IMG/VR virus record: IMGVR_UViG_3300049070_000180
Span: 4,580-68,579 of that record
Strand: one strand, 5' to 3'
DNA from: a virus
Length of the DNA stretch: 64,000 bases
Part shown: positions 2,891-61,663 of the stretch, piece after piece
Layout: the number at the start of each line of letters is the position of its first letter
Numbering within the stretch: the stretch's first letter is position 1
Translations under genes and position numbers: made by a program
Notes under the pieces: generated by a model
What the model was told of the DNA's origin: nothing
Seen by the model: the letters and a program-made list of their open reading frames with translations, nothing else
The model's database searches: none

Positions 2891-3222
2891 GCCGGCACCG
2901 CCTTAGCCACGACAGCCGCGAGCACCTCGGCTTGCATCCGGTAGGCCGTCACCACATGCCCGAGGCACGGTCGGCACCATGCCCACGTCGGACGCGGGTC
3001 GGTCTCCGACGGTGCGAGCGACGTCCATCGCAACGCGATCTCCAGCGGTGTCAGTGAGTGCTCCATCGGCGGTGTCCCGTTCGGCCAGATCGCGATACCG
3101 CACATGGCCTCCCGGTCCTTCAGTGGCCGCTCCCTGAGCGCGTTCGGCTGATAGCCGGGGGAATGCAGATGCACGACCCGACCGCGCGGCGGCTTCACCG
3201 CGAAGATCTCGATCTCCCTCAT
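2887..3222 (-). CDS. Hypothetical protein (H...CG...CxxC Zn site)
   Basis: Coupled ORF. Confidence 0.55.
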   Translation of the reverse strand: MREIEIFAVKPPRGRVVHLHSPGYQPNALRERPLKDREAMCGIAIWPNGTPPMEHSLTPLEIALRWTSLAPSETDPRPTWAWCRPCLGHVVTAYRMQAEVLAAVVAKAVPA

Positions 3223-3743
3223 GCCGCACCACCCTCAGGCGGTGTCTCGCACCCAACCGCTGTTTTGACGGCTGCGCGGAGGAACGCCGCCATCATGGTC
3301 TTCGGCATCGGTCGTGCCGAGTTCCTCTTGGCAGGCCTCATGACCTTCAGCGCCGAATCTCCGGCGACCATTAGTCCCCACCCGGCAGGGAGCTCAGACG
3401 TGAGTGCAATCCCAGGCACGGCCGTCACGAGCCACCAGTAGTCCATGTACGGCGTGAACGCTCCGGCCTTCTCCGGCGTCTTCAACTCGGAGAGCCAGTC
3501 CGAACGGGACACCTTCACCTCGTGGCCATGCAGCGCCAGGCCCTTCGACGGCCACAAATCCATCGCGATGAAGTCCGCGATCCTCCGCGCGTCAAATCCC
3601 GCGTTGGACCGAACGTGGCTCGCACCCACGTACCGCGGTCCGTTGCCACCGTCACGGTTGTATCGCTTGCGCAGGAGCGCGATCATGTCGGCCTCGGTGC
3701 GCGAAGTGGCCGGCTCGATGTCGAACAGTTCAGGTGTGCTCAT
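3219..3743 (-). CDS. MmcB-like PD-(D/E)XK nuclease
   Basis: RIADFIAMDLWPS...GHEVKVSRSDWLSEL..PEK...WGL. Confidence 0.8.
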   Translation of the reverse strand: MSTPELFDIEPATSRTEADMIALLRKRYNRDGGNGPRYVGASHVRSNAGFDARRIADFIAMDLWPSKGLALHGHEVKVSRSDWLSELKTPEKAGAFTPYMDYWWLVTAVPGIALTSELPAGWGLMVAGDSALKVMRPAKRNSARPMPKTMMAAFLRAAVKTAVGCETPPEGGAA

Positions 3744-4443: not shown

Positions 4444-4796
4444 GACCCGAACCCCCGCTCGCCGGCGTACATCGCTCTGATGGACGCCCCGATTGACTGC
4501 GTGGCGCGAAGCTCGTTCTCCAGTGCACGCGCAGTCCGTTCGGCGTGGCGGAACGCGACCTCGGCGACCTCGGCCTCTTGCCGCTCCGCCGTGGTTGCGG
4601 CTTCAGCGGAGTACTTGCGCTCGTGCGCTGGCCCGTCGTGCTGGAGATAGGCCTGTGCGAAAGCCAGGTCGTACAATCGGCGCTTATGTCTGGCGGTCTT
4701 CTCGGCATCCGTCACCACCCGAACTCCGTTGTGGATCCGCCGGGAGATCTCCTGGATGTGCTTCTCGAGGTCGGCCGGATTCAGGACGTCGTTCAC
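4440..4796 (-). CDS. Coiled-coil protein next to the recombination genes
   Basis: Helical, ends ...QSIGASIRAMY; adjacent to ERF. Confidence 0.6.
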   Translation of the reverse strand: MNDVLNPADLEKHIQEISRRIHNGVRVVTDAEKTARHKRRLYDLAFAQAYLQHDGPAHERKYSAEAATTAERQEAEVAEVAFRHAERTARALENELRATQSIGASIRAMYAGERGFGS

Positions 4797-5425
4797 TTGG
4801 TCTCACCGCCTGGCCGGCGCATCCGAGCGGGTGGCTTGAGGTGGGTCCTGTACTCCTTCAGCGTGTCCAAGTCGGCCTCGGCGATCACGCCGCCTTGGCT
4901 CCAGAGGGTGTAGTCCTCGGCCAGGGCAGTGAAGTCGCCGTCGGTAATCCAACCCTTCTCCTCGGCGATCGCCCAGATCTCGTTCTTCAACTTGGTCATC
5001 GGGTCGGCCCCCCGCGTCGCCCCCTTGCCGGCCGGGTCGGACTCACCGGTGGGGATCTGCAACATCTGGGTGTGCGCGATCCGCAGCGCGACGCTCATCG
5101 CTTTGGACACCGCGCTGTCGCCGAGATCGGAGGCCTCGCCAGCCACCACCGTGACGAGCGAGTCCCCTTCTGGACCCTGGTATGTGTAGGCCACGGTGAC
5201 GGTGACTTCCCTGGCCCGCTTGCCTTTGTCGGTGGTGATGTCGCGGGAGTCGAGCTGTCGCAGTTCGGGGATGACGTTGATCTCGTTGGCGAGCAGTGCG
5301 GGGCCGACCCGGTTCAGCACCGCATCTATCCCCCGGTACGCGAAGTTGTGGAAGGTGTTCCGGTCACCCTTGCCGATGATCCCCACATCATGGCGGGTCT
5401 TCAGGAGCGCCTCGTGGATGTTCAT
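4793..5425 (-). CDS. ERF-family single-strand annealing protein
   Basis: IGKGDRNTFHNFAYRGID...GEASDLGDSAVSKAMSVALR...IPT. Confidence 0.85.
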   Translation of the reverse strand: MNIHEALLKTRHDVGIIGKGDRNTFHNFAYRGIDAVLNRVGPALLANEINVIPELRQLDSRDITTDKGKRAREVTVTVAYTYQGPEGDSLVTVVAGEASDLGDSAVSKAMSVALRIAHTQMLQIPTGESDPAGKGATRGADPMTKLKNEIWAIAEEKGWITDGDFTALAEDYTLWSQGGVIAEADLDTLKEYRTHLKPPARMRRPGGETK

Positions 5426-6189
5426 GCCGCAACCTCCGGACGCTCCAGAGGAAGACCGATCAGCTTGTCCAGCCGCTTGGACTGGACATTGGCGAGGTAG
5501 TTGGCTTGCGCCTTCAGGTAGTTCTCGAACGTGTCCAAGTCGGCGATGAGCGGGACCAAGTCGTAGTCGTCGGGCTTGATGTGCAGCACGAACGTCCGGT
5601 CGACCGGCACCATCGGCTGCTCGTTGCCGTCCTTGTCGAGATACACCTCGGCGTAGCGGTAGGCCGCCACCTGCAGCGCCGTCTCCCCGTATACGCCCCG
5701 ACTGGTCTTATAGTCGACCAAAGATCGACCCAACGTAGGGATGTCCTGAATGGAATCCAGCGTCCCGGCGTAGCCGTGTTTCCTAGACGCCACAACGATC
5801 TCCTCGTGGACCGATGCTGGGTTCCAGTCCCGAATGAACGCCGCATACCCATCCACATAGGGCTGCAGTGCTTCGGCGACCTCGATCTCCTCGCCCCTGA
5901 TGTACTTCTCGGCGAGGGCGTGCACGTCGGTCCCACGAACGGCTGCGGTGTCCCGCTTCTGGTTGGGGATGCCCTTCAGGAAGTCGATCGTCGGGTAACG
6001 TCCGCCCGAGTCCAGCATCCGCTTGACGTCGAAGATGTTGTCCACCACGTAGGTTGCGACTTCCTTGGCCGCCCACGGAACGAGAGCGTCCTTCGGGATC
6101 CCCTTCAGCGCGGTAGTGACGCCGACCGCTCGACGGCCATCGATTGTGTAGCTGTGCCACGAACCGTGATCGGCCTTCTTGATGGTCAC
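5422..6189 (-). CDS. PD-(D/E)XK exonuclease (RecE/Cas4-like partner of ERF)
   Basis: GVTT...RGTDVHALAE...YAGTLD...VDYKTS...LQVAAY. Confidence 0.85.
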   Translation of the reverse strand: MTIKKADHGSWHSYTIDGRRAVGVTTALKGIPKDALVPWAAKEVATYVVDNIFDVKRMLDSGGRYPTIDFLKGIPNQKRDTAAVRGTDVHALAEKYIRGEEIEVAEALQPYVDGYAAFIRDWNPASVHEEIVVASRKHGYAGTLDSIQDIPTLGRSLVDYKTSRGVYGETALQVAAYRYAEVYLDKDGNEQPMVPVDRTFVLHIKPDDYDLVPLIADLDTFENYLKAQANYLANVQSKRLDKLIGLPLERPEVAA

Positions 6190-10620: not shown

Positions 10621-11007
10621 ATGTCAGCTATCAGCAGGACCTTGACCGTGCTCGCACTGCTGCCGCCGGGGGTGATCGGACCCTACGTGGTGGCTCGGGC
10701 TGTGGAACTGGATGGGCGCGCGTGTGTTCAAGCGTTTGTGGTCGGGTTGGCTCTGGTCATCGCAGCGCTGGCCGTGCTGATCCAGCGACTTCGCGTCGTC
10801 CACGAGCAGACCGCGTTCGAGCGCACCTTGGAGGACGCGGTGGCTGAGCTGCGCCGCGACGGCATCGAGCGCGACCATCAGATCGACGAGCTCCGCAGCT
10901 CCATCAACTCTGAGGCCATCCACTCATCCTGGCAGCAGGCCGCGTACCGGCTGGACTGCCGACGGACGGGCCACCGACTGCAACTCATCACCAGAGAGGG
11001 AGACTGA
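10621..11007 (+). CDS. Membrane protein (2 TM + coiled coil)
   Basis: Hydrophobic segments; TGATG overlap with the integrase. Confidence 0.55.
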   Translation: MSAISRTLTVLALLPPGVIGPYVVARAVELDGRACVQAFVVGLALVIAALAVLIQRLRVVHEQTAFERTLEDAVAELRRDGIERDHQIDELRSSINSEAIHSSWQQAAYRLDCRRTGHRLQLITREGD

Positions 11008-12272
11008 TGGCATGGGCTGAGCGGTTGTCGAAGACGTCGAAGAAGTGGCGCGGCGGGTGGCGCGACGCCGACGGCATCAAGCGTTACACCCGCAGGCCGG
11101 AGTTCCCCGAGCACCCCTACCCGCGCAAGACCGACGCGTTGGAGGCGGCGAAACAGGCCGAGGCGAAGGCCACCCGCACGGCGGCGGTGGCCGCGGGGAC
11201 CGCGTCGGCGACGATGCTGTGGGGACTGTGGTGGGAGCTGATCAAACGGGAGCACCCGCACACGGACTCGGCCCGCAACGAGCGGGACATGGTGAACCTG
11301 TACATCCGGCCCAAATGGGCGTCGACACCCCTGGTCGGGATCAAACGCAAACAGGTTCAGGACTGGATCGACAAGGAGTTGTCACCGGGCCGGGGAGCAA
11401 CCTACGTGCGACGGATCTACGCTGTCTTCTCCTGGTCGATGACCAGGGCATTGGCCGAGGAGATCCTGGACGCCTCACCGTGCGTGCGGATCAAGCTCCC
11501 GACGGTGCACAAGAAGCCGAAGCCCCGCGCCACGCTCGCCAACCTCGCCGCGCTCGAGCAGGTCGACGAGAAGGACCGTCCACACCTGCGCGTCGCCGCC
11601 CATCGGGAGATGAAGGACTTGCAGTATGAGACTGGTCTTCGGCCGGGCGAACTGTGCGGGCTGCACGACGATCAGGTGGATCTCGATACGGGATGGCTGG
11701 AGGTGACCAACGTGTTCGTCACCCGCCGGCGCGCGATCCGGCCGTGGCCGAAGGACAAGGACGCACGGAGAGTGCCGCTCACGGGCAGAGCGGTAGAGAT
11801 CTTGCGGCGGTGCATCGCCGGCCTGCCTGACGACGAGTCGGGGTGCGGCGTCACCCACACTGACGGGTCACGGTGTGAGGCGCGGCTGGTCTTCCGCAAC
11901 AACTGCGGGCTACCGGTCACTCCGCACGCCTATGAGCAGGCGATGCGCAAGGCTTCGAAACGGGCCGCCATAAAGAATCCGACTCCGTACGGGCTGCGTC
12001 GAGCTTTCTTCGATTGGATGGCCGAGGGTGGCTTGGACCCGTTCGCCATGGCTGCGTTCGGCGGGCATGAGGATGTCCGGCAGACCGCCGACTATGTTGG
12101 CCAGACCTCGACGGCGCGGGATCGGCTGCGGGCCGCGCGCGGGGAGAGGGGCGACTTGAGAATTGTTGCCGGGGAGTCCACTGTGGACTCCGCTTGGGGC
12201 AGATCTGGGGCAGACTTGCCCCGGACCCCACCGGACCCCACCGGACTCGAGGGTGATCAAGATGCGGTCTGA
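11007..12272 (+). CDS. int: Tyrosine integrase
   Basis: TGLRPGEL, PK, TPYGLRR, GHEDVRQTADY catalytic motifs; N-terminal arm-binding region. Confidence 0.93.
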   Translation: MAWAERLSKTSKKWRGGWRDADGIKRYTRRPEFPEHPYPRKTDALEAAKQAEAKATRTAAVAAGTASATMLWGLWWELIKREHPHTDSARNERDMVNLYIRPKWASTPLVGIKRKQVQDWIDKELSPGRGATYVRRIYAVFSWSMTRALAEEILDASPCVRIKLPTVHKKPKPRATLANLAALEQVDEKDRPHLRVAAHREMKDLQYETGLRPGELCGLHDDQVDLDTGWLEVTNVFVTRRRAIRPWPKDKDARRVPLTGRAVEILRRCIAGLPDDESGCGVTHTDGSRCEARLVFRNNCGLPVTPHAYEQAMRKASKRAAIKNPTPYGLRRAFFDWMAEGGLDPFAMAAFGGHEDVRQTADYVGQTSTARDRLRAARGERGDLRIVAGESTVDSAWGRSGADLPRTPPDPTGLEGDQDAV

Positions 12273-12429
12273 CATGCTGATACCACCTGACCCGCCCGTA
12301 CCCCACCGGACGATACCGGGTGCGACAGTTCCCCAGGTCAGAGCATTAGCGGCGCAAGCGACGTGTGCCGCTCCCAACTCATCTACCAGCGGAAACCTCA
12401 AGATCGTGGGGCTGAGCTGGGGCAGACTT
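12195..12429. other. Putative attP (arm-type and accessory-factor sites)
   Basis: TGGGGCAGATC-TGGGGCAGACTT (12195-12217), TGGGGCTGAGC-TGGGGCAGACTT (12407-12429), and CCGGACCCCA tandem repeats (12221-12246). Confidence 0.65.
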
Positions 12430-12487
12430 CAAGATCACATCGCGCGGGCCGCCATCGAGCGTCATCCGGTGCGTTCTCCCAGAAAGC

Positions 12488-12517
12488 TTGACAGTATGCC
12501 GCATCGTGCGGCATACT
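12488..12517 (+). promoter_or_regulatory. Sigma70-type promoter overlapped by a palindromic operator
   Basis: TTGACA-N18-CATACT; AGTATGCCGCA-tcg-TGCGGCATACT. Confidence 0.7.
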
Positions 12518-12554
12518 TGGTCAGGTAAGGGACCCGAACTTGAAGGAGACCCAG

Positions 12555-12914
12555 ATGTCCGCCATGGCCGACCTGTCCACCGCCATCACCGATCTCGCCG
12601 AGGGGCACGGCCTGGACTCCAGGCAAGCGGAACTCGTCGCGAGATACGTCGGCAAGCCCATCGCACCCCACCTACACCCCACCTACACCCCGGCCAACCC
12701 GATGATCGCCGTGGCGCACCTCGGCTTCGGTCAAACGGATCACATCCGCAAGCTGATGTTCGAGGAGCACTACCAGTCGTTCGGATGGATCCAGGTCGAG
12801 GTCCGGCGCTGCACCGACTGCCAGACCGTGCTGCCGATCCTTGCGGGCGGGCCAGCGTTCGAGCAGCCGTGGCGGCTGGATTACTTCCCGCGCTGCTCCC
12901 GGCACGCGTTCTGA
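12555..12914 (+). CDS. Hypothetical protein
   Basis: AAGGAG RBS; CTDC. Confidence 0.6.
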   Translation: MSAMADLSTAITDLAEGHGLDSRQAELVARYVGKPIAPHLHPTYTPANPMIAVAHLGFGQTDHIRKLMFEEHYQSFGWIQVEVRRCTDCQTVLPILAGGPAFEQPWRLDYFPRCSRHAF

Positions 12915-12916
12915 TC

Positions 12917-13135
12917 GTGGCCGAATTCTGGACCACCACCCAGGCGGCGGAGTACTGCGGCATCACCAGCGCGGCCTTCCGCCGCGAGCGGTCCCGGGAC
13001 TATCCGCCACCTGAACCAGTGGGCCGGCAGCCGGGGCGCAAGGGGCAGGACCTGTACGACGCCGACGCTGTCCGCGCCTGGCGCGCCAACCGACCGGGCC
13101 GGGGCTTCCGGTCAGACCTGAAGGAGATGCAGTGA
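12917..13135 (+). CDS. AlpA/Xis-like winged HTH protein
   Basis: WTTTQAAEYCGI...PPPEP...LYDADAVRAWRANRPGRG. Confidence 0.7.
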   Translation: MAEFWTTTQAAEYCGITSAAFRRERSRDYPPPEPVGRQPGRKGQDLYDADAVRAWRANRPGRGFRSDLKEMQ

Positions 13136-13422
13136 GCAGTCCGACTAGCGATCCCCGCCAGCCTGCGTACGACGTGGTCTTCGGAGAGATCCGCAAGTGT
13201 GGGTCGGCGGCAGCGAGCAACGCCTTCGCCTGGCGCTGTGTCCACACCGCACTGAACGCCGCGAAGGTCGGCGAACCGGTCGACCCTCAGTCCGGACTCG
13301 AGATGGTGGATCGGGAGGTCCGCCGCTACAACCCCCTGAGTTGGCCCGTGGTCACAGCGGGCATCGTGTCCTTCGCTGTGGTCGCTCTTGCGGTGGCTGC
13401 CGCTGTGGGGTGGTTGGGGTGA
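13132..13422 (+). CDS. Membrane protein
   Basis: C-terminal TM helix. Confidence 0.55.
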   Translation: MSSPTSDPRQPAYDVVFGEIRKCGSAAASNAFAWRCVHTALNAAKVGEPVDPQSGLEMVDREVRRYNPLSWPVVTAGIVSFAVVALAVAAAVGWLG

Positions 13423-14195
13423 GCGTCGATATCGGGTCGATCATCGACCCGGGCGCCGCGGTCACAGCGCTGAAGTCGATGTGGGCGACGCATCCCCCGG
13501 AGACGTGGGATCACAAGCCGATGGTCCCGTTGCATGCCACGACGTACGACCAGGAGTCGGATGGGATTAATCCTTACTGGGACATCGTCCGCCAGTTGCC
13601 GCTGAGCAACACCGACCTGGGTAGCGGCCATGCAACTCAGGTCGAAGGCTACTGGTCCGGTCCTGGGCAAGACCGGCTCTTCATCTCCCGTCACGAGTTG
13701 GTCAAGACCTACGCGTGGGCCATACCGACACCCACTGACATCCAGTGGATCGTCTCGGTGCTCAAGGGCCGGGGCGTGGCGGAGATCGGCGCGGGTACTG
13801 GCTACTGGGCGTGGCAGTTCACCCAGGCCGGCGTGGATGTTATCGCGGTCGATGAGTTCGTCGGCGACGACAACACCTTCTGTGGTCCGACCCGCTATCA
13901 CCTCGTACATAACGGCGGGCCTCGAACGGCTCAGCAACATCCCGACCGGGCTCTGATGCTGTGTTGGCCACCGTACGGGGGGCTCATGGCCGCGCAGTCC
14001 CTGGAGCAGTACGCCGGAGATCTGCTCATCTACATCGGCGAGCCGGAAGGCGGCTGTACGGCTGACGACGACTTCTTCCGCCTGCTCGACTCCGACTGGA
14101 ACCGCATCGGCGCCGCGCCGCAGCACGTGACGTTCTCCGGCATCCACTGCTACGTCGAGGCGTACGGGCGCAAGGGGGTGCGGGCCGATGTCTGA
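13419..14195 (+). CDS. Class I SAM-methyltransferase-like protein
   Basis: YAWAIP...VAEIGAGTGYWA...LMLCWPPY...IYIGE..GGCTADD. Confidence 0.75.
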   Translation: MSVDIGSIIDPGAAVTALKSMWATHPPETWDHKPMVPLHATTYDQESDGINPYWDIVRQLPLSNTDLGSGHATQVEGYWSGPGQDRLFISRHELVKTYAWAIPTPTDIQWIVSVLKGRGVAEIGAGTGYWAWQFTQAGVDVIAVDEFVGDDNTFCGPTRYHLVHNGGPRTAQQHPDRALMLCWPPYGGLMAAQSLEQYAGDLLIYIGEPEGGCTADDDFFRLLDSDWNRIGAAPQHVTFSGIHCYVEAYGRKGVRADV

Positions 14196-14439
14196 TCTCG
14201 CACCCGATGAGGTGTTCGACTACTACGGCGAGCCCTGCGGGATCTGGGGCCAGAGCGTGGTGCCAGCGGGTGAGGAGATTGACCCGGTGCCGGCCGTGTA
14301 CGCCACCGGATCCGAGGTCTCGGTCGGGGACTACCGCCTGAGTATCAACGTGGCCGAGGCGTACGCCGAGCGGATCCTCACTGCCGTGAGATACCAGCGG
14401 GCCCTGGACTCAGCGAAGGAGACTCCGGCCGATGTCTGA
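14188..14439 (+). CDS. Hypothetical protein
   Basis: Coupled ORF flanked by a 16-bp direct repeat. Confidence 0.6.
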   Translation: MSDLAPDEVFDYYGEPCGIWGQSVVPAGEEIDPVPAVYATGSEVSVGDYRLSINVAEAYAERILTAVRYQRALDSAKETPADV

Positions 14440-14753
14440 TCTTGCCAAGCGACTCCGAGACATGGCCGGGAAGACGGCCTTCGACGAGGTCCGGAAGTGG
14501 CATGTACCGGAGGCGAACCCGGTACGGCGGCGTGGTAGCTCCGATGGGACCGACCGAGAAGGACGTGGGCCGTGCGATCGTCCCCGCCTTGCTCCGCGAG
14601 GTCGCCGACCACATCAGCGCCTTCCCGCTCCTCGCCGACGACGAACCCGACGCCGGGTCGTTCGACGACGGGATGCGCACCGCCTACGCCCAGTTCGTGA
14701 ACACCTTCCGGGTGTGGGCGCAGGAGATCGAGGAAATGCCCAATGTCCGCTGA
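14432..14753 (+). pseudogene. Frameshifted hypothetical gene
   Basis: The MSDLAKRL start frame turns low-complexity near 14520, while another frame gives a plausible C-terminus coupled to the next gene. Confidence 0.45.
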
Positions 14754-14973
14754 TCTCGCGCAGAGGCTAGTGGAGGCAGCCACCCACGAGATCGTCAACG
14801 CGCCACACGACGATCACGACGTGCCGGACTACGAGGTGGCCGGTCGTGCTGCCGCGGTCGCCGTACTGCGGGAGTTGGCCCTAGCAGGCCTGCTGATCGC
14901 GCACGACGTGTCAGACTTCCCGAAGGCGTGCCGCGCGTTGGCCGACTCGATTGAGAAGGGAGAGACGGCATGA
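14743..14973 (+). CDS. Hypothetical protein (related to 59948-60247)
   Basis: LAQRLV.AA...GRAAA.A.L..LA...R.LA..I. Confidence 0.6.
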   Translation: MSADLAQRLVEAATHEIVNAPHDDHDVPDYEVAGRAAAVAVLRELALAGLLIAHDVSDFPKACRALADSIEKGETA

Positions 14974-15146
14974 GCACCGAGGACTGCGTGTTCTGCCGCA
15001 TCGCCGCAGGCGACGCTCCAGCCACGATCGTGCGGGCCTGGCCGGACGCCCTCGCGATCGTGCCACTCGGACCGGTCACACCAGGCCACATCCTGGTCAT
15101 CCCGAAGGCGCATGTAGCGGAGTCCACAGAAGGCGGGACGTCATGA
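14970..15146 (+). pseudogene. Truncated HIT-family hydrolase
   Basis: DCVFCRIAAG...PVTPGHILVIPKAHV then stop; HxHxH triad missing. Confidence 0.75.
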
Positions 15147-16111
15147 GCACCTGCACATCGCACTGGAACGCCACAAAACACCGCACCTGCATCGGGGCTC
15201 TGGCGGCTGGCTGGATCAACGCGCCGGACTTGTGCCCGAACTGCACGCTGCGCTTCATGGCCGCCCTGGACGCTGTCGAGCCGGACCTGGATTGGCATGA
15301 CGCCTACCGGCAGCGGGCGGAGTCCGGGGAGGTGTCGGCGTCATGAGCACCGAACTCGCCGAGATGCTCGACAACCTGTCGTTCGCGCTGAAGAACGGCC
15401 GGACCGCCATGGCGCTCAACGCCATCGGCGACATCGCCCCACGGCTGGACCCTCTCCGGGAACAACTGCGGTCCGAACTCCGTACCGAACACGCAGCGCG
15501 TATCGCTGCCGTAACAACTGGTACCGGCGCTTCCCATGACTGGGACGTAGCCGACGAAGTTCGCTGTCGGCGCTGCCACATCAGCGTACTGGGACCGCAC
15601 GTCATCGAACGCGGTCAACTGCCAGCCTGCTCGGACACGCCGCCTTGCTCACTTGACGCACACCTCGTCGGCGCCACCGTCGGGGGGTCGGCTGGGTATG
15701 GCCGCTGCATCTACTGCGACACAACGTTCCCCGCCACGAACCTCGTAGTGTCCGGGGAGGTGCCGGTCCAGTGAGCGGCGCCGAAGCGGTGGGGATCCTC
15801 GTCTGCCAGATCATCATCGGTGTTGTGGGGCTCTATGGAGCATGCTGGTGGGTCTCCGCCTTCCTTGGGTGGAGGGTTTGGAAACGAGAACAGCGAGAGA
15901 GGGAAAGAGGACCAGTCCAGTGAGCGGCGCCCTCGTGTGGGAGTTCGACGTGGCGGTATCCACCCACGACCTCGTCAAGGCCGGGGTTCTGGTAGCCGAT
16001 TGGCGTGAGGTGTCCATCTGCTCGGACAGCTACGCCGATGCCAGCCTGGGGGCGCTCCAGATGGCAGCTGCTGATGGTGCGATGCCAACCGACATCCTGT
16101 GGAGGTACTGA
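15143..16111 (+). CDS. Four small coupled genes (15143-15346, 15343-15774, 15771-15923 membrane, 15920-16111)
   Basis: ATGA/GTGA overlaps with RBSs. Confidence 0.6.
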
Positions 16112-17368
16112 TGGACCCCGTGCGACAACCCACGGACGAGGAATGCAGCGCCAACGCTGAGGTTCTTCACGGCAGGAAGGTCGGCTACGCCTGCTGGTAT
16201 CCGCAGACTGGCGGCTATGCCGGGAAGGCCCTCGCCGTGCCCGACGATGACGGTCATGTCGACGTCTACGTCTGGCATGACGGGCAGTTCCCGTTCGACG
16301 GCCATTGCCAGAACTGCCGCGACGGGAGGCAGCCGGTCGAGATCCACCACTGCGATGGTGGCCAGTTCATCCAGTTCGGGGAGTTCATCAACGCGATCGG
16401 CGGGAAGGTATGACCACAACCAAGACCATGGCGGTCTACATCAACAACGGCCCGGCGATGGTTGGCACGCTCAGCGAGGAGCAGGAGCGGATCCCCGTCT
16501 CCTCGAACCTCCCGGAGCCGGACCTGCGCTGGGAGCACACCGACAGCCACGGCCACTTCCACGCCCATTCCGACGACAAGGACGACCGGTATCCGACGCT
16601 GGAGCGGCACGTCGAGCGCGCCGAGTGTGACGGCTCCTGCGGTGGGGTGTGCGAAGGCGAGGGCTACCACACCGTTCGGTACACCTGCCGGATCTGCGAC
16701 GAGGAGATCAAGCCGGGGTCCATCCCCGGCCCGCACCACCACACCATCCCCGGCATGCGGTCGTGGACCGTTCAGGTGGCGGGCCCCGTCTCGCCATTCG
16801 AGAAGGTTTCCGTGCGGGTCGAGGCTGGGGACACGGTCTACTTTGGGATCGCTGAGGGCACCTCGCGCTCGGCGACGTCCTGGGGCTCGGACGAAACCAC
16901 CTACGTCTCGGACTTGGTGGGCATCGGTCCCTTGGGGAGGCGGAAGGCATGAGCGACTGCACCACCACCGACCTCAACGGCACACGGGTGACCGCCCACT
17001 CCCACTATCGGGGTATCTGTCACGCGTACCCAGGCCCGGACGGCGAGATCATGATCGACGGGCACGCCCTTTCGTCACCGTTAGAGTCCTGGCTCCGGGA
17101 CCATCGCCGTGAGGCGGTTGTAGATCCGGAGGAGGAGTACCGGCCGCCGTGTCCCACTTGCGGGACTCCAGTGGACATCGACTGGTGCGAGATCACCGCG
17201 TTCGGTCAGTCACAGCGGCAGTTCATCGCCGGCCGGGTCGAATGCCCGAGGAACCGGCGGCACGACATCAGGGCGGCCTATGAGGAGCTGAACTGGCCGA
17301 CCGGGCTCACGGACGACGACCGAGTCTGGCTTCGGCGACAGGCGCGCTTGGCCAAAGAGTCAGCCTGA
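16111..17368 (+). CDS. Three Cys/His-rich hypothetical genes (16111-16413, 16410-16952, 16949-17368)
   Basis: Coupled ORFs with CxxC motifs. Confidence 0.6.
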
Positions 17369-17463
17369 CTAGCTGGTGACGAGTTCGTCACGACGGTAAC
17401 GCTCCCGCAGTAGCGGAGCGACCCCTTCACGTCATCCACGTATGCACCGGTAGGAGCCAACCC

Positions 17464-17934
17464 ATGTCACAGCAACCCCAGTGGCAGCCCACCGCGCCAC
17501 CTCCCTACCAGCCACCACCACCACGGCGCAGACGCCGGGTCTGGCCCTGGGTTCTACTCGGCGTTGTCGTCCTGTTCTTCGGCGGCTGCGTCGCCATCGC
17601 CAACAACGTCGGCAACGAGATCAAGGAACAGTCCCGACCAGTGATGGTCACCTACGAGATCACCAGCATCGGTGTGGTCACGGCTGGGAACATCACCTAC
17701 ACCAAGGATGTCAACCTCGGCATGGAGCAGGTCGGCGACGCAAAGCTACCCTGGAAGAAGGACGTCCAGTTCGGCGAGGGGTTCTTCAAACCGCTCTCGA
17801 TCTCAGCGCAAGCCGGGAACGGTACCGGGACCATCACCTGCCGCATCCTCGTGGACGGTGTTGAGGTGGCCAAGTCCACCAGCCAAGGGCAGTTCGTGAT
17901 CGCCAGCTGCTCAGGCGACGTACCGAAGCGCTGA
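17464..17934 (+). CDS. MmpS-family membrane protein
   Basis: Pro-rich N-terminus, TM, VTYEI...LPW...ITCRILVDG...ASC. Confidence 0.8.
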   Translation: MSQQPQWQPTAPPPYQPPPPRRRRRVWPWVLLGVVVLFFGGCVAIANNVGNEIKEQSRPVMVTYEITSIGVVTAGNITYTKDVNLGMEQVGDAKLPWKKDVQFGEGFFKPLSISAQAGNGTGTITCRILVDGVEVAKSTSQGQFVIASCSGDVPKR

Positions 17935-17942
17935 GATACGCA

Positions 17943-17976
17943 ACCGGCCCCTCGGTATCACAACCGAGGGGCCGGT
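17943..17976. terminator. Bidirectional hairpin terminator
   Basis: ACCGGCCCCTCGGT / ACCGAGGGGCCGGT between convergent genes. Confidence 0.8.
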
Positions 17977-17992
17977 GCTAGTTGAGTAGCGC

Positions 17993-18205
17993 TCAGCGGT
18001 CGAACTGCCCCGCCTTAACTGCCGGCAGCAGTGCGCCGAGGTCCGCTCGCAGAGTCGGGCCGGTCGGGTTCTTGCTGTCCCTCACCGCGCCGATGCTGGC
18101 CACTTCCACGCAGTTGCCGCCGTCGCCCCCGCTGGCGCTGCTCTTGCGCCAGGCCACGTATGGTCCATCCATGATCCTCATCCCTTCCTGTTTAGCCCAG
18201 GTCAT
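17993..18205 (-). CDS. DUF397 protein
   Basis: WRKSSAS...GNCVEVA...VRDSKNPTGPTL. Confidence 0.93.
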   Translation of the reverse strand: MTWAKQEGMRIMDGPYVAWRKSSASGGDGGNCVEVASIGAVRDSKNPTGPTLRADLGALLPAVKAGQFDR

Positions 18206-19059
18206 GCGTCTACCAGGCTAACCATGAAGGCTGCGCTCTCGTCGGGCGAGAGGGCGAGCCTGGTCAGCGCATCGAAGGTGCCGGTGTACCGAGCGAGGTC
18301 TGTCGGTCGCTCGAGGTAGGTCGCACCCTCATCGTGCTCGAGGTAGACAAAGTTCGGTGCCGGCTCATCTGGCAAGGTCAGCAGCGAGAACGCGTTCTTC
18401 ATTCCGGGGTGCGGGCCGACGCTGAAGGGCAAGACCTGCAGGGTGATGAAGCTGCGCCGAGACATCTCCGCGAGGTACTCGACCTGCTCGCGCATGTCAC
18501 CGACAGGCCGACGCAATACCGCTTCGTTCAGCACGAACCGCAAGACAGGCGGCCTGGCTTCGAGGCGCTTCTGCCGCTCCTGTCGGAAGGCCACGAGCTT
18601 AGCGATCCCGGCGTCCTCGTTGCCGTCGTCGCTGCGGTAGGCGGCCCTGATTGCCCGGACGTAGCCAGGCACCTGCAGCAGACCCGGCACGAGTTCGGAC
18701 TCGTAGGCGCGGATCTCCTTGGCGTCGGTCTCGAAGCCGATGTAGGTTTCGAACCAGTTGGGCATGGTGTCGCTGTAGCTGACCCACCAGCCGCGTTCGT
18801 TGCTCTCTTCAGCCTGCCGAATAAGCATGTCGACCAGAGGTGCGCCGATCTCGTAGAGCTGACAGAGGAACCGTACGTTCCTGGGCAAGATCGCGAAGCG
18901 GCCGTTCTCGATCCTGCCGATGGTCTGCCGCCTGACGCCGAGGTAGTCGGCTGCCTCGTCCTGCGTCTTACCTGCCGACTCGCGCAAGCCGCGAAGCTGC
19001 TTGCCGAGGCGCCACCTGCGGACCAGTGAGCCAGGGCTCAGGTCATCGCTGTCATCCAT
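18202..19059 (-). CDS. XRE HTH + DUF5753 regulator (WhiJ/Scr1-like)
   Basis: RLGKQLRGLRE...GWW...YESELVPGLLQ...LNEAVLRRPVG...ALSPDES. Confidence 0.93.
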   Translation of the reverse strand: MDDSDDLSPGSLVRRWRLGKQLRGLRESAGKTQDEAADYLGVRRQTIGRIENGRFAILPRNVRFLCQLYEIGAPLVDMLIRQAEESNERGWWVSYSDTMPNWFETYIGFETDAKEIRAYESELVPGLLQVPGYVRAIRAAYRSDDGNEDAGIAKLVAFRQERQKRLEARPPVLRFVLNEAVLRRPVGDMREQVEYLAEMSRRSFITLQVLPFSVGPHPGMKNAFSLLTLPDEPAPNFVYLEHDEGATYLERPTDLARYTGTFDALTRLALSPDESAAFMVSLVDA

Positions 19060-55900: not shown

Positions 55901-57634
55901 TCACTCGTAGCTCCTCGGCCACTCACCCGAGAGCACCTTCCTGCGGCACTCAAGAGCCTCTTCGAGGGTGTCGAAGGCCACGTCTGCGACGTCCCATTTG
56001 CTGGGCTTGCGCCCCTCGCCGAACCGCTCTCGGCCGCCCTCGCCGTTGTTGACGATGATCTCGCCCTTCTCGAAGGGCCAGAAGCGCGGCTCGCCTAGAT
56101 CCACGATCTGACCAGCCATCGGACCTTGGCCCGCAGTCAGGCTGGATGCGTCCGTGATCACGGAGAACTTCAACTGGTTGAGGTCCAGCGGGTCTAGATC
56201 GTTGAGCACGAGCAGGATGTCTTCCGCCTTGCTGGTCATCGATGCCTCCACGGCTCATCAGGGTGGTACTCAGGCCAGGAGTCGGTGCAGATCCAGCGGC
56301 CGTTCTCGTCGACTGCCGCCTTCCACATCCAGACGTAGGGATCGCCGACGTGAACGCCCAGACCCCATGCCTTGGTGATGGTCAGGATGATCTTCTTCGG
56401 TAGCTCCGGCTCCACTACGTCCATCGGCTGCGCGAGGAGCCGCTTGAGGGGCGGGGGCGGCCCCGGCAGCACCACGTTGTAGTTGCCGGCATTGATCCAG
56501 TCGCGGACCCAGCGCGCCTGTCGCTCAAGGCTCGGGTGAGCCGTATTCGGTGCTGGTGGCCACGTGAAGGTTGGAGCCTCGTCCGCTAAGCCCTCGAAGT
56601 ACAGCGCCGCCTCAACACTGGCTTCGATCTCCAACCTCTCCATAGCCGCATCAAGCCGGGCCATCAGTTCGTCGTGGCTGGCGTCTTCCCAGTCGGTCAT
56701 CGGCCCTCCCGCCGAGGTTGTCAGCCACGCCACGAGCGCCAGGGTGGGTGTGGATGTTGCAGGGCTTGGTGGGGTCCACGGCGTTGCCGATGTGCCACGG
56801 GCCTGGCTGTGCCTCGCTCGCGGCCTTCTCTCGTCTGCCGATCGCTTCCAGCAGGCGGGTGGTCAGGTCGTCGGTCACGGCGAATATCCCTTCCGGAACA
56901 CGAGATACGCGGCTAGGCGGAGCCGCCGACGCCACCGCAGCGTCGGTCCGTACACCCTCGCAATGGCCCAGATCAGGTGATCACCCGTGTTGCCGGTCTG
57001 CGCGACCGCCTTGGCGTAGTCGAACACGAGGCGGCAGTCCTCGGTGACACCCTCATAAATCGCCTCGCGCTCGGCGGTGGCGCCAGCCCGCCACGCGAGG
57101 TTGAGCAGATGCTCGACCTGGACGGTGCTCAGCGGGTCCTTCCCGATTCGGGCCTGCGACCACATCGCTCGGGCACAGTCCCGGTCGTGACCGGGAAGGG
57201 AGTAGCGGTCATGTGCGGGGATGGCGAGGTAGTCAGCCAGTTCGGTCACCGGGACCTCCTAGGGTCGATGCGACGTCGTGCTCGCCTCTTGCGGAAGATC
57301 CGGATCGCGATGGCGACACTCGCGGCGGTCGGGAGCAGGAAGCCGGCGCAAGCGATCCCCATGATCAGGTAGCCCAGGAGCACATAGCCGCTCAGATACA
57401 CAGCCAGGCCGGCGAGCATGATCGCGCCAGTGGTGAGTTGAATCCGGATCTGGTTCCGGTCTATGGCGTCTAGGGTGGACTGGAGGTCGGGGGAGGTCAT
57501 GGCCGCTCGTCCTCAACCGCGCGTCGGATCATCTCCGTGAGCTGTGGCCGCCACTCCTCAGGGATCAAATCTGGGATGGATGGGGCTCCCAAGCCTGGGG
57601 GAACGATGATGGTGGGGTCGTGGTGCTCAGCCAT
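55901..57634 (-). CDS. Small hypothetical genes (55901-56239, 56236-56700, truncated 56651-56878, 56875-57249, 57246-57500, 57497-57634)
   Basis: Coupled ORFs with RBSs. Confidence 0.55.
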
Positions 57635-58300
57635 CGTTGGCCTCCTGGGTGATGCCGAGCTCATCGGCGATGGCTCGTCGAACCTCAAGCCGGTAGGCCT
57701 CCTGGCCGGCGTGGAACCACTTCTGGTCGGAGATGAACCGGGCTTGCGTGGATGGGTGCGGCTCCACGTCCAGGACGGCATTGAGAGCGCACGAGTAGCA
57801 ACCGCTTGGGTCGTTGCCGTCGAACAGCAGTAGGTGTTCGACTCGCCGGGGAACTCGTCGAATGCCAGGACATCCACACCGAACTGTGCCAACTGCCATG
57901 CCCAATACCCGGTGCCCGCGCCGATCTCGACCACGCTTCGCCCTTCGAGCACCGTCGTTAGCCAGCGGATGTCATCCGGTGTCGGGATCGCCCACGCGTA
58001 GGTCTTAGTCAACTGGTCGCGGGACATCAGATACTCGCGGCCGATCCGGCAGGCATAGCCGTCGACCTGGATCGCGTGCCCGCTGCCCTCGTACAGCGAG
58101 GAGTGGCGATCGAGGGGCAGATGTCGGACGATCTCCCAGTACGGGTTGATCCCTTCCGGATCCTGGTCGTACGCCGAGCCAAGCAACGGAACCATTTGCT
58201 TACCATTGAAGGTGGCCGGCGGATGGTCGGTCCACATCATCCGCAGCTTGGCCACGGCAGCTCCGTGGTCTTCGATCACAGTTATGGCGTCTCGGCTCAC
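57627..58300 (-). pseudogene. Truncated paralogue of the 13419-14195 methyltransferase, joined out of frame to the 3' end of another gene
   Basis: GINPYWEIVRHLPL...VVEIGAGTGYWA...SNTYC, then homology stops near 57830. Confidence 0.75.
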
Positions 58301-59094: not shown

Positions 59095-61663
59095 GATCCA
59101 CCCCGCTCACGGTAGGATTTCGCCGTGGGACGGAGCCAAAGATAGCCGTTGCCCGCAGCCGTGCCGGTGTCCATGACATCAACGATGTGCACCACGCGAG
59201 CATCGTCCTTGACCGTCAGGATCTGCTGGTCACCCAGCGTGTCCCGGATCGCGTACGTCGCAATGGCTCCGGCGTCGCGCTCGTCAATCGCACGCACGGT
59301 GACGAAGACAGTCACGGCCACGCGCTGTTCCTGCAGTTCACTCATCGGGGATCCTCCTGTCTATCGCGGTAGTCCCCGGTAATCGGGACCTCAGCCACCA
59401 CACCGCCGATGAACTTGGCTCGCTTGTGGGCGACCTCTCTGTCCAGCCATGCTCCGTAGAGGCCGGCTCGATCAGGGAGGAGGACCAGGTGGATGTGGGA
59501 AGTCATGACGCCCGCCATAGCTCGGACCTGACGGAGAGCTTCTGAGCCAGCTTCGCGATCACAACCATGGCCTGGCCGTCGCTCAGCCGAACGTTTCGGA
59601 CCGACCCGCCGGAAGTGGCCGCCTGGATCACCAGGGTGTGGCCGCCGTCGTCCGTCTCAACGCCGATGAACCGAAGCTCCTGGTTGGTCATTTGGGCTCC
59701 CCATACTGGGAGAGCCAGCGATCGAGTAACTCTCGGCCCAGGACCGTTGTCTCGCACGCCAAGATTCCCTCCCCCACATGGCGATGTCTGATGGCGCAGG
59801 CGTCCTCCATGAGTGCGTTGAGTGCGCGTGACATCTGCGGGATGGTCGCCGGCTGCCTGACGAACACCTCGAGCCTGTCGTCGGCCGCGATCTGTACCTG
59901 TCCGGCTTCAACCGCCGCCAGCATCTTGTGTCGGAGCGGGGTGTAGTTCAGGGGCATGGAGACTCCCGGATGTCAGCGGCCAGCCTGCGTAGCTTGTTGA
60001 CCGAGATGGTGATCGCGGCGAGGGTCCGTGCATCCGCCGGCAGCGAGATGTTGCGGCGCTCCGCATCCCACTCTTCCGCAAGCTTCGCCAACGCAGCTCC
60101 CGCGGCAGCGCGACCGTCGCATTGATTGCAAGAGACCTGACCTTGGTCGGCCATGTGCTCGCAGATCGTCCCCCCTATCGCCTCAGCCGCTGCGTCTACC
60201 AGCCTCTGGGCTAGTGGGGTGGGGTCCTCAGGCATCGTCGTGTCCATACGCCCCCAGGTCTAGTGGCAACTGGACATCGATGATGCGCGGCGCACGCGGT
60301 GGAGGCGCTGGAAGTAGTGGAGCGGGAGTGTGGCGCAACTTGGCGTTAGCATGTTTGATCAGTTCAGACATCGCGCGCGTTTGCACCGCCGTCAAACCGA
60401 TATCTTGTCGGCCTCCGCGAAGTAGACAGTTGATCCACAGTTGTCGAACGATGGTGTCGCGGAAACGATCAAGCTTGTGATTCGCCGCGGCCAGGTATTC
60501 CACTTGCTGAGCAACAGCCTCGACATGCCTGCGCAACTCCGGTTCGCCGATATCCACACCGGCCATCTCCGCGTAACAACCAGCCAGGGTGAGAGCTCGA
60601 TCCCGTTGGGCGTCGGCCGTGTCCTTGGCCTCAATCAACTCTCGGACACGCAGCCTGAGGCGGACAATCTCAGCCGCCTGGCGCATCTCGACAGTAGTCA
60701 TGGGTCAGACCTCCCCGCGAAGCTCGGGCAGATACGTCATGTGCCACGTCGGATGCGCAGGGCGCGCGATGTTCGAACCTTCGAGAAGCACCAGAACGTG
60801 CGGCCCGCTAGCGCCCCGGATCTCCCCCGGCTTGCCGTCGCAGATCACCTTGCCGCCCACCCGTGCGGGGACGTGGTAGTAGCCCCGGATGTAGTCCAAG
60901 CCGTCGGTGCTCACTGTGCCTCCCCGCGAAGCTCGGAGGCACGGGCCAGCAACTCGTTTCCTTTTAGGAACGGGCCGACCTCGGGACGCAATCCCCGAGT
61001 AGCGAGGTGTTGGGCCGTGCTGGATGCACGGCCGCCGCCTCCTGCTGGGCTTCTCGTGGAAGCCTTGTCGGCTTGCTCGGCCGCCATCGTCCAGCCATCG
61101 CAGTAGCCCTGCGACCATGGCGAAGGAGACCCCGGCCGGTAGTCGCTTAAGGCGTTGAAGTCACGGTTGCCATGGCTGTGGCCTTCCGAGTACTCCGCGA
61201 ACGTCGCGTCGTTCATTGCCCCTTGCCTCCATCGCATCTCTCCTAGTGGCGGCACGTCATGCAGGTGCAGCCAGTGCGGCAGGCCGCGCACAGGCGCTTC
61301 GATCGGTCGGCGGCGTGGAAGAGGATCCCGGCCGTCAAAACCAGCAAAGCGGCCTTGCCGGTCACGCCAGTCGCAATCACGCCGCACCCTCGGCACTGGA
61401 TCTGCGGCGGGTCCAACGACACGATGCCGTCCACGAGCCCGGGCATCGTAGGTAGCTGCTCGACGGCTTCCATCGCTCTCGCCTCCATCGCAGATAGACG
61501 GTCAGTGCTCGTTCGTTCCGCCGTTCAGCCAGTGCACACGCTGAGCCGCCTCGTCCGCGCTGCCGTGGTCACTATCCGGTTGCCACCGCCCTGACGGGTC
61601 GTAGTAGCCGACCGTCCACAGGCCCGGCTCGGAGCGCAGGTACACCCAGGTGACGTCCGACAT
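59091..61663 (-). CDS. Small hypothetical genes (59091-59345, 59503-59691, 59688-59957, 59948-60247, 60228-60701, 60705-60914, 60911-61216, 61243-61473, 61502-61663)
   Basis: Coupled RBS-led ORFs. Confidence 0.55.

Follow-up and report, generated by a model that had tools for sequence, protein, structure and literature searches.

Direct repeats at the gene junctions of a soil actinophage point to a probable stacking and swapping of single genes through short homology

How could a phage change one small gene in a tightly overlapping operon and keep the neighbouring genes coupled? The question is raised by a chain of small genes in a soil actinophage, which we analysed in a 64-kb window (the whole stretch of DNA studied, 64,000 nucleotides (nt) of the 68,579-bp IMG/VR virus record IMGVR_UViG_3300049070_000180, a record with direct terminal repeats; all positions given here are those of the window). 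The chain genes overlap by 1–11 nt, and five of the eight (A, the HIT fragment, D, E and F) are bracketed by direct repeats of at least 10 nt that sit on the stop/start junctions. What are these repeats? Our proposal, to which we give a probability of roughly 0.6, is that they are duplicated junction modules, left by recombination at short homologies in which single genes are stacked and swapped.

An earlier, sequence-only reading of this DNA had described five repeats (R1–R5; Table 1), and all of them are located where it put them. The gene coordinates and the alike protein starts that it gave are also correct: MSDLA/MSDLA/MSADLA, MST three times, and VSGA twice (GTG starts, written MSGA in that reading). 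Its claim that most genes are bracketed stands for the five genes named above; B is framed through a gapped match only, and C and G are unbracketed. It had also stated that the repeat differs for each gene. The pairs do differ, but the junctions are not independent of one another: aligned at their start codons they make a stepwise family running C/HIT, HIT/D, D/E, E/F, F/G. The first two of these have AGAAGG..GACG.CATGAGCACC in common, HIT/D and D/E have GCGGAGTCC and CGTCATGAGCACC, D/E and E/F have GTCCGGGGAGGTG.CGG including the ribosome-binding site, and E/F and F/G have CC.GTCCAGTGAGCGGCGCC. Upstream, g4/A, A/B and B/C have in common an unusual 8- to 11-nt overlap, ATGTC(CGC)TGATCT. Genes D and E have the same head, the same tail and unrelated bodies, and judged by their sequences they look like a pair of alleles of a single slot standing in tandem.

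Table 1. Genes, junction repeats, junction modules and candidate recombination genes (window positions; aa, amino acids)
Feature	Position	Strand	Remarks
g4	13419-14195	+	258 aa, phrog_19090; tail ..ADV-stop
Gene A	14188-14439	+	83 aa, no family; R1 on both sides
Gene B	14432-14753	+	frameshift near 14518; bracketed through gapped match only
Gene C	14743-14973	+	76 aa; small family; not bracketed
HIT fragment	14970-15146	+	58 aa; bracketed
Gene D	15143-15346	+	67 aa, no family; bracketed by R3 and common tail GCGGAGTCC
Gene E	15343-15774	+	143 aa; bracketed
Gene F	15771-15923	+	50 aa; by eye a single hydrophobic helix; R5 (17 nt exact) on both sides
Gene G	15920-16111	+	not bracketed; H, I and J come next
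R1 GGCCGATGTCTGATCT	14183 and 14427	+	16 nt exact; 18/19 identical over 14183-14201 vs 14427-14445
R2	14954-14978 vs 15128-15151	+	21/25 aligned columns identical, 1 gap
R3 CGTCATGAGCACC	15139 and 15339	+	13 nt exact
R4 GTCCGGGGAGGTG	15322 and 15750	+	13 nt exact; 16/17 over 15322-15338 vs 15750-15766
R5 GTCCAGTGAGCGGCGCC	15766 and 15915	+	17 nt exact; 19/20 over 15763-15782 vs 15912-15931
Module g4/A (R1 copy 1)	14183-14201	+	g4 end codons ..ADV-stop, 8-nt ATGTCTGA stop/start overlap, gene A head MSDLA
Module A/B (R1 copy 2)	14427-14445	+	16 nt exact
Junction B/C	14738-14759	+	third, diverged copy of the R1 head: ATGTC, 3-nt CGC insertion, TGATCTCGC
Module C/HIT (R2 copy 1)	14954-14978	+	
Module HIT/D	15128-15151	+	R2 copy 2, plus R3 copy 1 (15139-15151)
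Module D/E	15322-15351	+	R4 copy 1 (15322-15338, with GGAGG ribosome-binding site), then R3 copy 2 (15339-15351)
Module E/F	15750-15782	+	R4 copy 2 (15750-15766), then R5 copy 1 (15763-15782)
Module F/G (R5 copy 2)	15912-15931	+	
Other-strand repeat, 18 nt exact	60710-60727/60919-60936	-	brackets gene 60705-60914; tails ..ELRGEV-stop and ..ELRGEAQ-stop
Other-strand repeat, 12 nt exact	61225-61236/61481-61492	-	with GGAGG; brackets gene 61243-61473
Other-strand repeat, 12 nt exact	3241-3252/3756-3767	-	upstream of two successive starts; brackets gene 3219-3743
ERF-family single-strand annealing protein	4793-5425	-	PF04404, 45.2-45.5 bits vs cut-off 25
Putative PD-(D/E)XK nuclease	5422-6189	-	adjoins ERF; weak match, E 6.6e-4, below Pfam cut-off
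Tyrosine recombinase/integrase	11007-12272	+	PF00589 (generic Phage_integrase match); head of the plus-strand block

Are there more such repeats than chance would give? Counting exact direct repeats with copies 30–700 nt apart, the 64 kb hold 18 of at least 12 nt, 10 of at least 13 nt and 3 of at least 16 nt, compared with means of 6.4, 1.8 and 0.045 in 200 order-3 Markov simulations, none of which (0/200) reaches any observed count. Four of the 10 repeats of at least 13 nt fall within the 1.75-kb chain region, and 8/18 of those of at least 12 nt join two gene junctions. The sequence-only reading had expected adjacent junctions to be more alike than randomly paired ones, and under permutation they are. 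Windows from -30 to +18 were taken at the 15 start codons of the plus-strand chain and their order was shuffled 200,000 times: the summed longest common substring of adjacent junctions gives p = 1e-5, the observed Smith-Waterman sum is reached by 0/200,000 shuffles, and the four adjacent pairs with at least 12 nt in common give p 6e-4. Over the whole window (118 genes from a simple in-house caller, used outside the chain too), at least 12 nt are common to 7/113 adjacent and 5/6790 non-adjacent junction pairs (Fisher p 1.9e-10), an 84-fold excess in the adjacent fraction. With the chain region excluded the counts are 3/104 and 3/5891 (p 1e-4).

The remaining three of the seven adjacent pairs thus lie outside the chain region, all on the opposite strand. 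In total eight genes of this genome are bracketed, five in the chain and three on the other strand, by repeats of 12–20 nt. They encode proteins of 50–174 aa with no Pfam family (E thresholds of 0.01 or 0.001), apart from the HIT fragment, the only chain gene with an above-cut-off family, and gene E, whose SRA1 match is below cut-off (E 0.0053, 16.9 bits vs 23.3). For gene E no homolog was found among the 78–251-aa proteins of a 5.8-billion-protein index. In 855–1280, again on the minus strand, an exact repeat of 15 nt (855/1255) extends to a match of about 25 nt with one indel; it lies at no called junction.

How does the likeness change with distance? Pairs inside one uninterrupted same-strand block reach at least 12 nt in 7/112 cases at separation 1, 1/107 at separation 2, 0/103 at 3, 1/465 at 4–8 and 1/2094 at 9 or more. 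The same decay is seen in 31 other phage loci, which were chosen solely for encoding a distant g4 homolog: 15/747, 5/680, 0/626, 5/2540 and 5/3559, respectively. There, separation 1 against 3 and above (15/747 vs 10/6725) gives an odds ratio of 13.8 (p 1e-9). Nine of the 42 loci were left out as they have no training open reading frames (ORFs) (L003, L016, L017, L020, L021, L029, L031, L032 and L034); L001 and L044, copies of the phage's own genome, and L019 and L042, duplicates of L018 and L041, were also dropped. The window shows the signal about three times more often than the other loci, and five times consecutively. Single cases in unrelated phage contigs are also on view: 18–19-nt exact repeats at two successive starts in L006:5003-5613, L035:3253-3629 and L030:75-1173, and GACGGGGGTGC.TGATG at three junctions in series in L002:2082-3294.

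Could the likeness have a simpler source, such as one motif used at every start? Cluster K mycobacteriophages have a start-associated motif of that kind, one conserved sequence upstream of many starts. No genome-wide start motif is apparent in the window, where non-adjacent pairs at 12 nt or more remain at the background level given above. Convergence or chance would be a related answer, in that overlapping stop/start codons, GGAGG and GC-rich codons leave few junction sequences to choose from. ATGAGCACC-type starts do recur at non-adjacent junctions, where two pairs reach 13 nt and 45/6790 reach 10 nt. The excess, however, appears at separations 1 and 2 only and drops to zero at 3 in the same operons, which, with the permutation and Fisher values, contradicts convergence and leaves it barely credible. 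What about a dedicated cassette system, integron-like or with other site-specific machinery, that recognises the junctions and moves single genes? The genes do behave as single units, and a tyrosine recombinase gene heads their same-strand block. Yet the junctions have no recombination site in common and non-adjacent ones stay at background, there are no attC-like hairpins (4 inverted repeats of 10–15 nt in the 2.1 kb of 14100–16200, one of them near a junction), and the same signal appears 45 kb away on the opposite strand, as it does in the 31 loci of unrelated phages. We regard such a system as highly improbable. A transposon with a fixed target-site duplication was also considered and rejected: the units are single small genes, the eight bracketed genes gave no Pfam transposase family at the thresholds used, and the repeats vary from 12 to 20 nt.

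Are the bracketed neighbours simply old tandem paralogs, diverged except at constrained ends? Beyond their MS(A)DLA.RL head, genes B and C match weakly in their interiors (score 42, p 0.017), and the unusual 8- to 11-nt overlap at three consecutive junctions could be read in the same way. The B–C match is the only pairwise similarity among the chain proteins. In none of the 22 adjacent matching pairs are the protein bodies related once their ends are trimmed (z <= 1.2). At the nucleotide level the repeats are the same, third codon positions included, beside wholly unrelated sequence, and the HIT fragment comes from a large unrelated family. Neighbour paralogy was rejected on the unrelated trimmed bodies, and as an account of the whole it is very unlikely. 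Taken together, the distance decay, the unrelated bodies and the recurrence in other loci argue against operon-wide use of a motif, against paralogy and against a quirk of this one phage.

Do related phages differ at these frames? Parts of the stretch occur in nine soil-metagenome runs and all of it in one, which may be the source. Contigs of three runs (X2–X4) were aligned at 85% likeness or more. The relative is about 97% identical, with near-identical blocks (15885–16548 has 0 differences in X2), yet mosaic. On a 36.9-kb contig of X3 (record 12), whose flanks carry 9–46 differences per piece, 1031 window bases between 13397 and 14429 are replaced by 969 others, and the match resumes in R1 copy 2, 3 nt before the start of gene B; 156 bases between 14780 and 14937, in the middle of gene C, are replaced by 141; and the 414 bases of gene E between 15333 and 15748 are replaced, in X2 as well, by 213. 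The sequence-only reading held that the breakpoints of relatives should not lie away from the repeats, and the gene E swap agrees with this: its left breakpoint is inside R4 copy 1 (15322–15334) and its right one 2 nt before R4 copy 2 (15750–15762). Together with a joint in X4, this swap means that the gene E slot, bounded by the R4 copies, holds at least two and perhaps three contents in co-occurring phages.

Further relatives were sought in several collections. No match was returned by blastn of 13000–17500 against 50,697 phage records, and no close relative was found in viral contigs searched with the 258-aa protein, gene E, a 30-nt exact stretch, the C allele P0125 and a C-family alignment. 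Protein I as query gave one locus only, at 50% identity, in JGI metagenome contigs, and when 17 chain proteins were compared by tblastn with 42 loci (L002–L043), protein I alone matched (L043), g4 rows being left aside. Just upstream of the chain, a 96-aa ORF (13132–13422) resembles a fusion. Where the window has 13298–13317, relatives carry 472 other bases, and the loose ends suggest a separate downstream gene beginning just before 13318. The difference points to a deletion in the lineage of the window or an insertion in that of the relatives.

Genes B and C and the HIT fragment tell more about the history of the junctions. Gene B changes frame near 14518, in a run of C (14510–14525). The X2, X3 and X4 contigs have one base fewer there and a single open frame, and the extra base is retained in X1, a source-like run (depth 95), so gene B is probably a pseudogene in this phage. 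The C family is small, with a conserved head (LAQRLV) and tail (LADSIEKGE); the relative's allele, P0125 (71 aa), has a head, MSADLAQRLVEAA, and a tail, ELADSIEKGETA, identical to those of the window's C, and a strongly diverged middle. The HIT fragment aligns only with the N-terminal ~52 residues of HIT proteins of 117–155 aa, up to ..VIPKAHVAE (Pfam HIT positions 3–41 of 98), and the histidine triad HxHxHxx is absent from it, the alignment with eight full-length homologs stopping before their HLHxHL motif. Where does the homology end? It stops at about residue 52–55 of 58, exactly where the 21/25 copy of the C/HIT module (R2 copy 2) begins. The last seven codons of the fragment resemble the tail of gene C, and tails of this type (..SIEKGETA, ..SIEMGGEYTEGG..) are native to the C family. 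On the simplest reading, an unequal exchange would have joined the HIT interior to a C tail in a related genome with D next, and this exchange would have truncated HIT and duplicated the junction module. The event would be an older one, since the HIT fragment and both its junctions are common to the relative.

How might short homology at the junctions produce such a chain? In the mechanism that we propose, each small gene of the coupled array is framed by a junction module. Such a module takes in the final 3–10 codons of the upstream gene, where the next gene usually has its ribosome-binding site, then the stop/start overlap and the opening 3–5 codons of that next gene. Related phages would carry different gene bodies between the same frames, and recombination in the frames would swap the bodies. 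Unequal exchange would stack two alternative bodies in tandem, the frame becoming a direct repeat that flanks a gene, and the same repeat could later permit precise, in-frame loss of the bracketed gene. By swapping, stacking and loss through the frames, arrays would grow, shrink and change gene by gene with coupling kept. It seems reasonable to assume that homology guided these events and that losses occur. Among the models of phage mosaicism, the one that best explains the process is that of the 'short conserved boundary sequence', with no dedicated site-specific system.

Which enzyme would carry out the exchange? The sequence-only reading had named the phage's ERF annealase and exonuclease. 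The annealase is clearly there, above its Pfam cut-off; for the exonuclease there is only a weak, sub-cut-off candidate in the adjoining gene, and a search for a YqaJ-type exonuclease found none. As candidate machinery we would favour this ERF protein and the adjoining nuclease over host RecA or replication slippage. In the experiments reported by De Paepe et al. in 2014 (the part concerned in PMC3945230), 800-bp repeats of 78% identity were recombined by an Erf/Exo pair with the efficiency of lambda Red, about 100-fold above the RecA pathway. As here, the sections at issue combine an Erf-family phage annealase with a mosaic relationship to close relatives; unlike the frames here, of 12–20 nt, the substrates in those sections measure hundreds of bases (PMC3945230).

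Are the repeats substrates of recombination or its scars? In the main rival reading, staggered illegitimate joins could have duplicated the target junction, the repeats then recording each insertion without having guided it. Selection would let only those insertions survive that supply the new gene with start, stop and ribosome-binding site and do not uncouple its neighbours. Illegitimate recombination followed by selection is the accepted alternative of the field, as the relevant parts of two papers have it (PMC3233612, PMC3029335), and it predicts the same static picture. It would suit a repeat that varies between pairs, with lengths from 12 to 20 nt, and the newest-looking pairs, which are perfect (17/17 and 16/16) and sharp-edged; the frameshifted gene B and the HIT fragment, both apparently dead, would fit sloppy neutral insertion. 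What speaks for substrates is that several bodies occupy the same frames (gene E, the 213 bases of X2 and X3, and the third state in X4), which calls for repeated independent insertion at one spot or for exchange through the frames. The tails also speak for them: those of C, the HIT fragment, D and E belong to a single diverging family, as expected with reused frames. Scars are therefore an unlikely explanation in our judgement.

Several observations nonetheless weigh against recombination through the frames. A homology-guided cause and a scar kept by selection are inseparable on the present data. For annealases to work efficiently, homology has to be longer than these exact stretches of 12–18 nt. 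Of the eight breakpoint ends, five are no more than 3 nt away from a repeat copy, but the other three (13397, 14780 and 14937) are 17–38 nt from a repeat or gene end, and all of these are ends of local alignments that may be a few bases off. An extra joint, 13297/13318, outside the chain region and not among the eight, is inside a gene. The X4 joint links 15353, just past R3 copy 2, to 15747, just short of R4 copy 2; if nothing lay between, it would be an in-frame skip of 393 nt, and it is not counted as a deletion. As for the earlier claim that single genes enter or leave by way of the repeats, the swap at the frames bears out the exchange, whereas for loss the X2–X4 contigs, which drop rare variants, show no empty site with one repeat copy and no deletion or circle. 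For X1 no deletion variant is listed either, which carries no weight in contigs of this kind. What stands in for gene E in the relative could be a shorter and distant homolog of it, as the gene E search covered proteins of 78–251 aa. Finally, the head and tail of C are conserved at the protein level across its family, so the conserved frames could reflect protein function.

How new is this? Island3 and LRRHood are close precedents, as described in the sections of Pope et al. (2011) that deal with these mycobacteriophages (PMC3029335). In Island3, the last 18 residues and about 50 bp of gene 68, an orphan gene that was inserted, repeat the end of gene 67, a case that is called there the first in mycobacteriophages. 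In LRRHood, genes 43–46 are flanked by 29-bp direct repeats, placed at the 3' end of one gene and upstream of the next, and relatives have one copy. Both cases are attributed in that account to recombination through the repeats (PMC3029335). Here, too, bracketing direct repeats stand at gene ends (R1–R5 and the three other-strand cases) and breakpoints of relatives fall at repeats (15333/15748, 15353/15747 and 14429). Island3 and LRRHood are single events with a relative that does not have the insert, whereas here eight genes are bracketed in one genome, five of them in a row. The repeats here are also shorter and include the overlapping stop/start and head codons, and what is seen is a swapped slot and no empty site. 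With these cases in print, the sequence-only reading's 'integron-like accordion' with no attC sites overstated its novelty.

Other known systems differ more. In the PeSL cassettes of T4-type phages, short repeats flank small non-essential genes in plastic regions, and recombination between neighbouring copies explains insertions, deletions and replacements among close relatives and yields mini-circles, according to the relevant part of Arbiol et al. 2010 (PMC2839356). As described there, PeSL is one common intergenic promoter-plus-terminator motif; the genes here overlap and their translational junctions change along the chain. The PeSL hallmark, an early promoter and a stem-loop terminator between genes, is not found in a scan of 12300–18000 (5.7 kb), which holds a single sigma-70-like promoter site (12488) and 0 terminator-like sites. 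Like integron cassettes, the chain consists of promoterless single genes that are added, lost or exchanged in an array read from one end; unlike integrons, it has no common site, no evidence of an IntI-type enzyme beyond a generic Phage_integrase match, and genes that are translationally coupled where integron cassettes have recombination sites between them. The kind of process is thus already known from Island3, LRRHood and PeSL. New are the density, the per-gene frames made of junctions in which stop and start overlap, the chain with its stepwise likeness, and a simple statistic by which the signal is found in unrelated phages as well. Our literature search found case reports and no systematic count of junction-bracketing repeats, which is no proof that none exists, as supplements were not covered.

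Why do the boundaries of phage mosaics match gene boundaries? In the discussion of this question in two papers, short boundary sequences that target recombination are set against illegitimate joins filtered by selection (relevant parts of PMC3233612 and PMC3029335). Clear boundary-sequence cases are rare, and here nature supplies a dense test bed within one genome. Eight of its genes are bracketed, five of them in a stepwise chain; the variants that co-occur with it differ exactly between the frames; and it encodes an annealase that is a candidate for the machinery. Being simple, the adjacency statistic could be applied to curated phage genomes by the thousand and to near-identical pairs, which would turn the debate into something countable. 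The chain also suggests how arrays of orphan genes expand without breaking translational coupling. Might coupling junctions be portable homology frames in general, through which tailed phages routinely swap, stack and lose accessory genes? We put this forward tentatively and would lean against it for now. If true, mosaicism at gene boundaries would be mostly homology-guided and not illegitimate, the adjacency excess would be its genome-wide signature, and orphan-gene arrays would be stacked alternative alleles of a few ancestral slots.

The genome around the chain has a GC content of 64.5% and carries most of its genes on the minus strand; one plus-strand block begins with the tyrosine integrase and ends at 17934. 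Direct repeats are clustered past the integrase stop (12205–12430), with ACCCCACCGGAC at 12225, 12235 and 12300 and CTGGGGCAGACTT at 12205 and 12417, and may be attP arm-type sites. A phrog_19090-type gene (258–267 aa) is present twice, on opposite strands, at 57497–58300 (-) and as g4 (+), the two matching by blastn at 76% over 190 nt. The last protein of the chain (17464–17934, +) has a Mycobact_memb match (PF05423, E 4e-6), and an XRE/DUF5753 regulator (18202–19059, -) faces its gene; these two genes indicate an actinomycete host.

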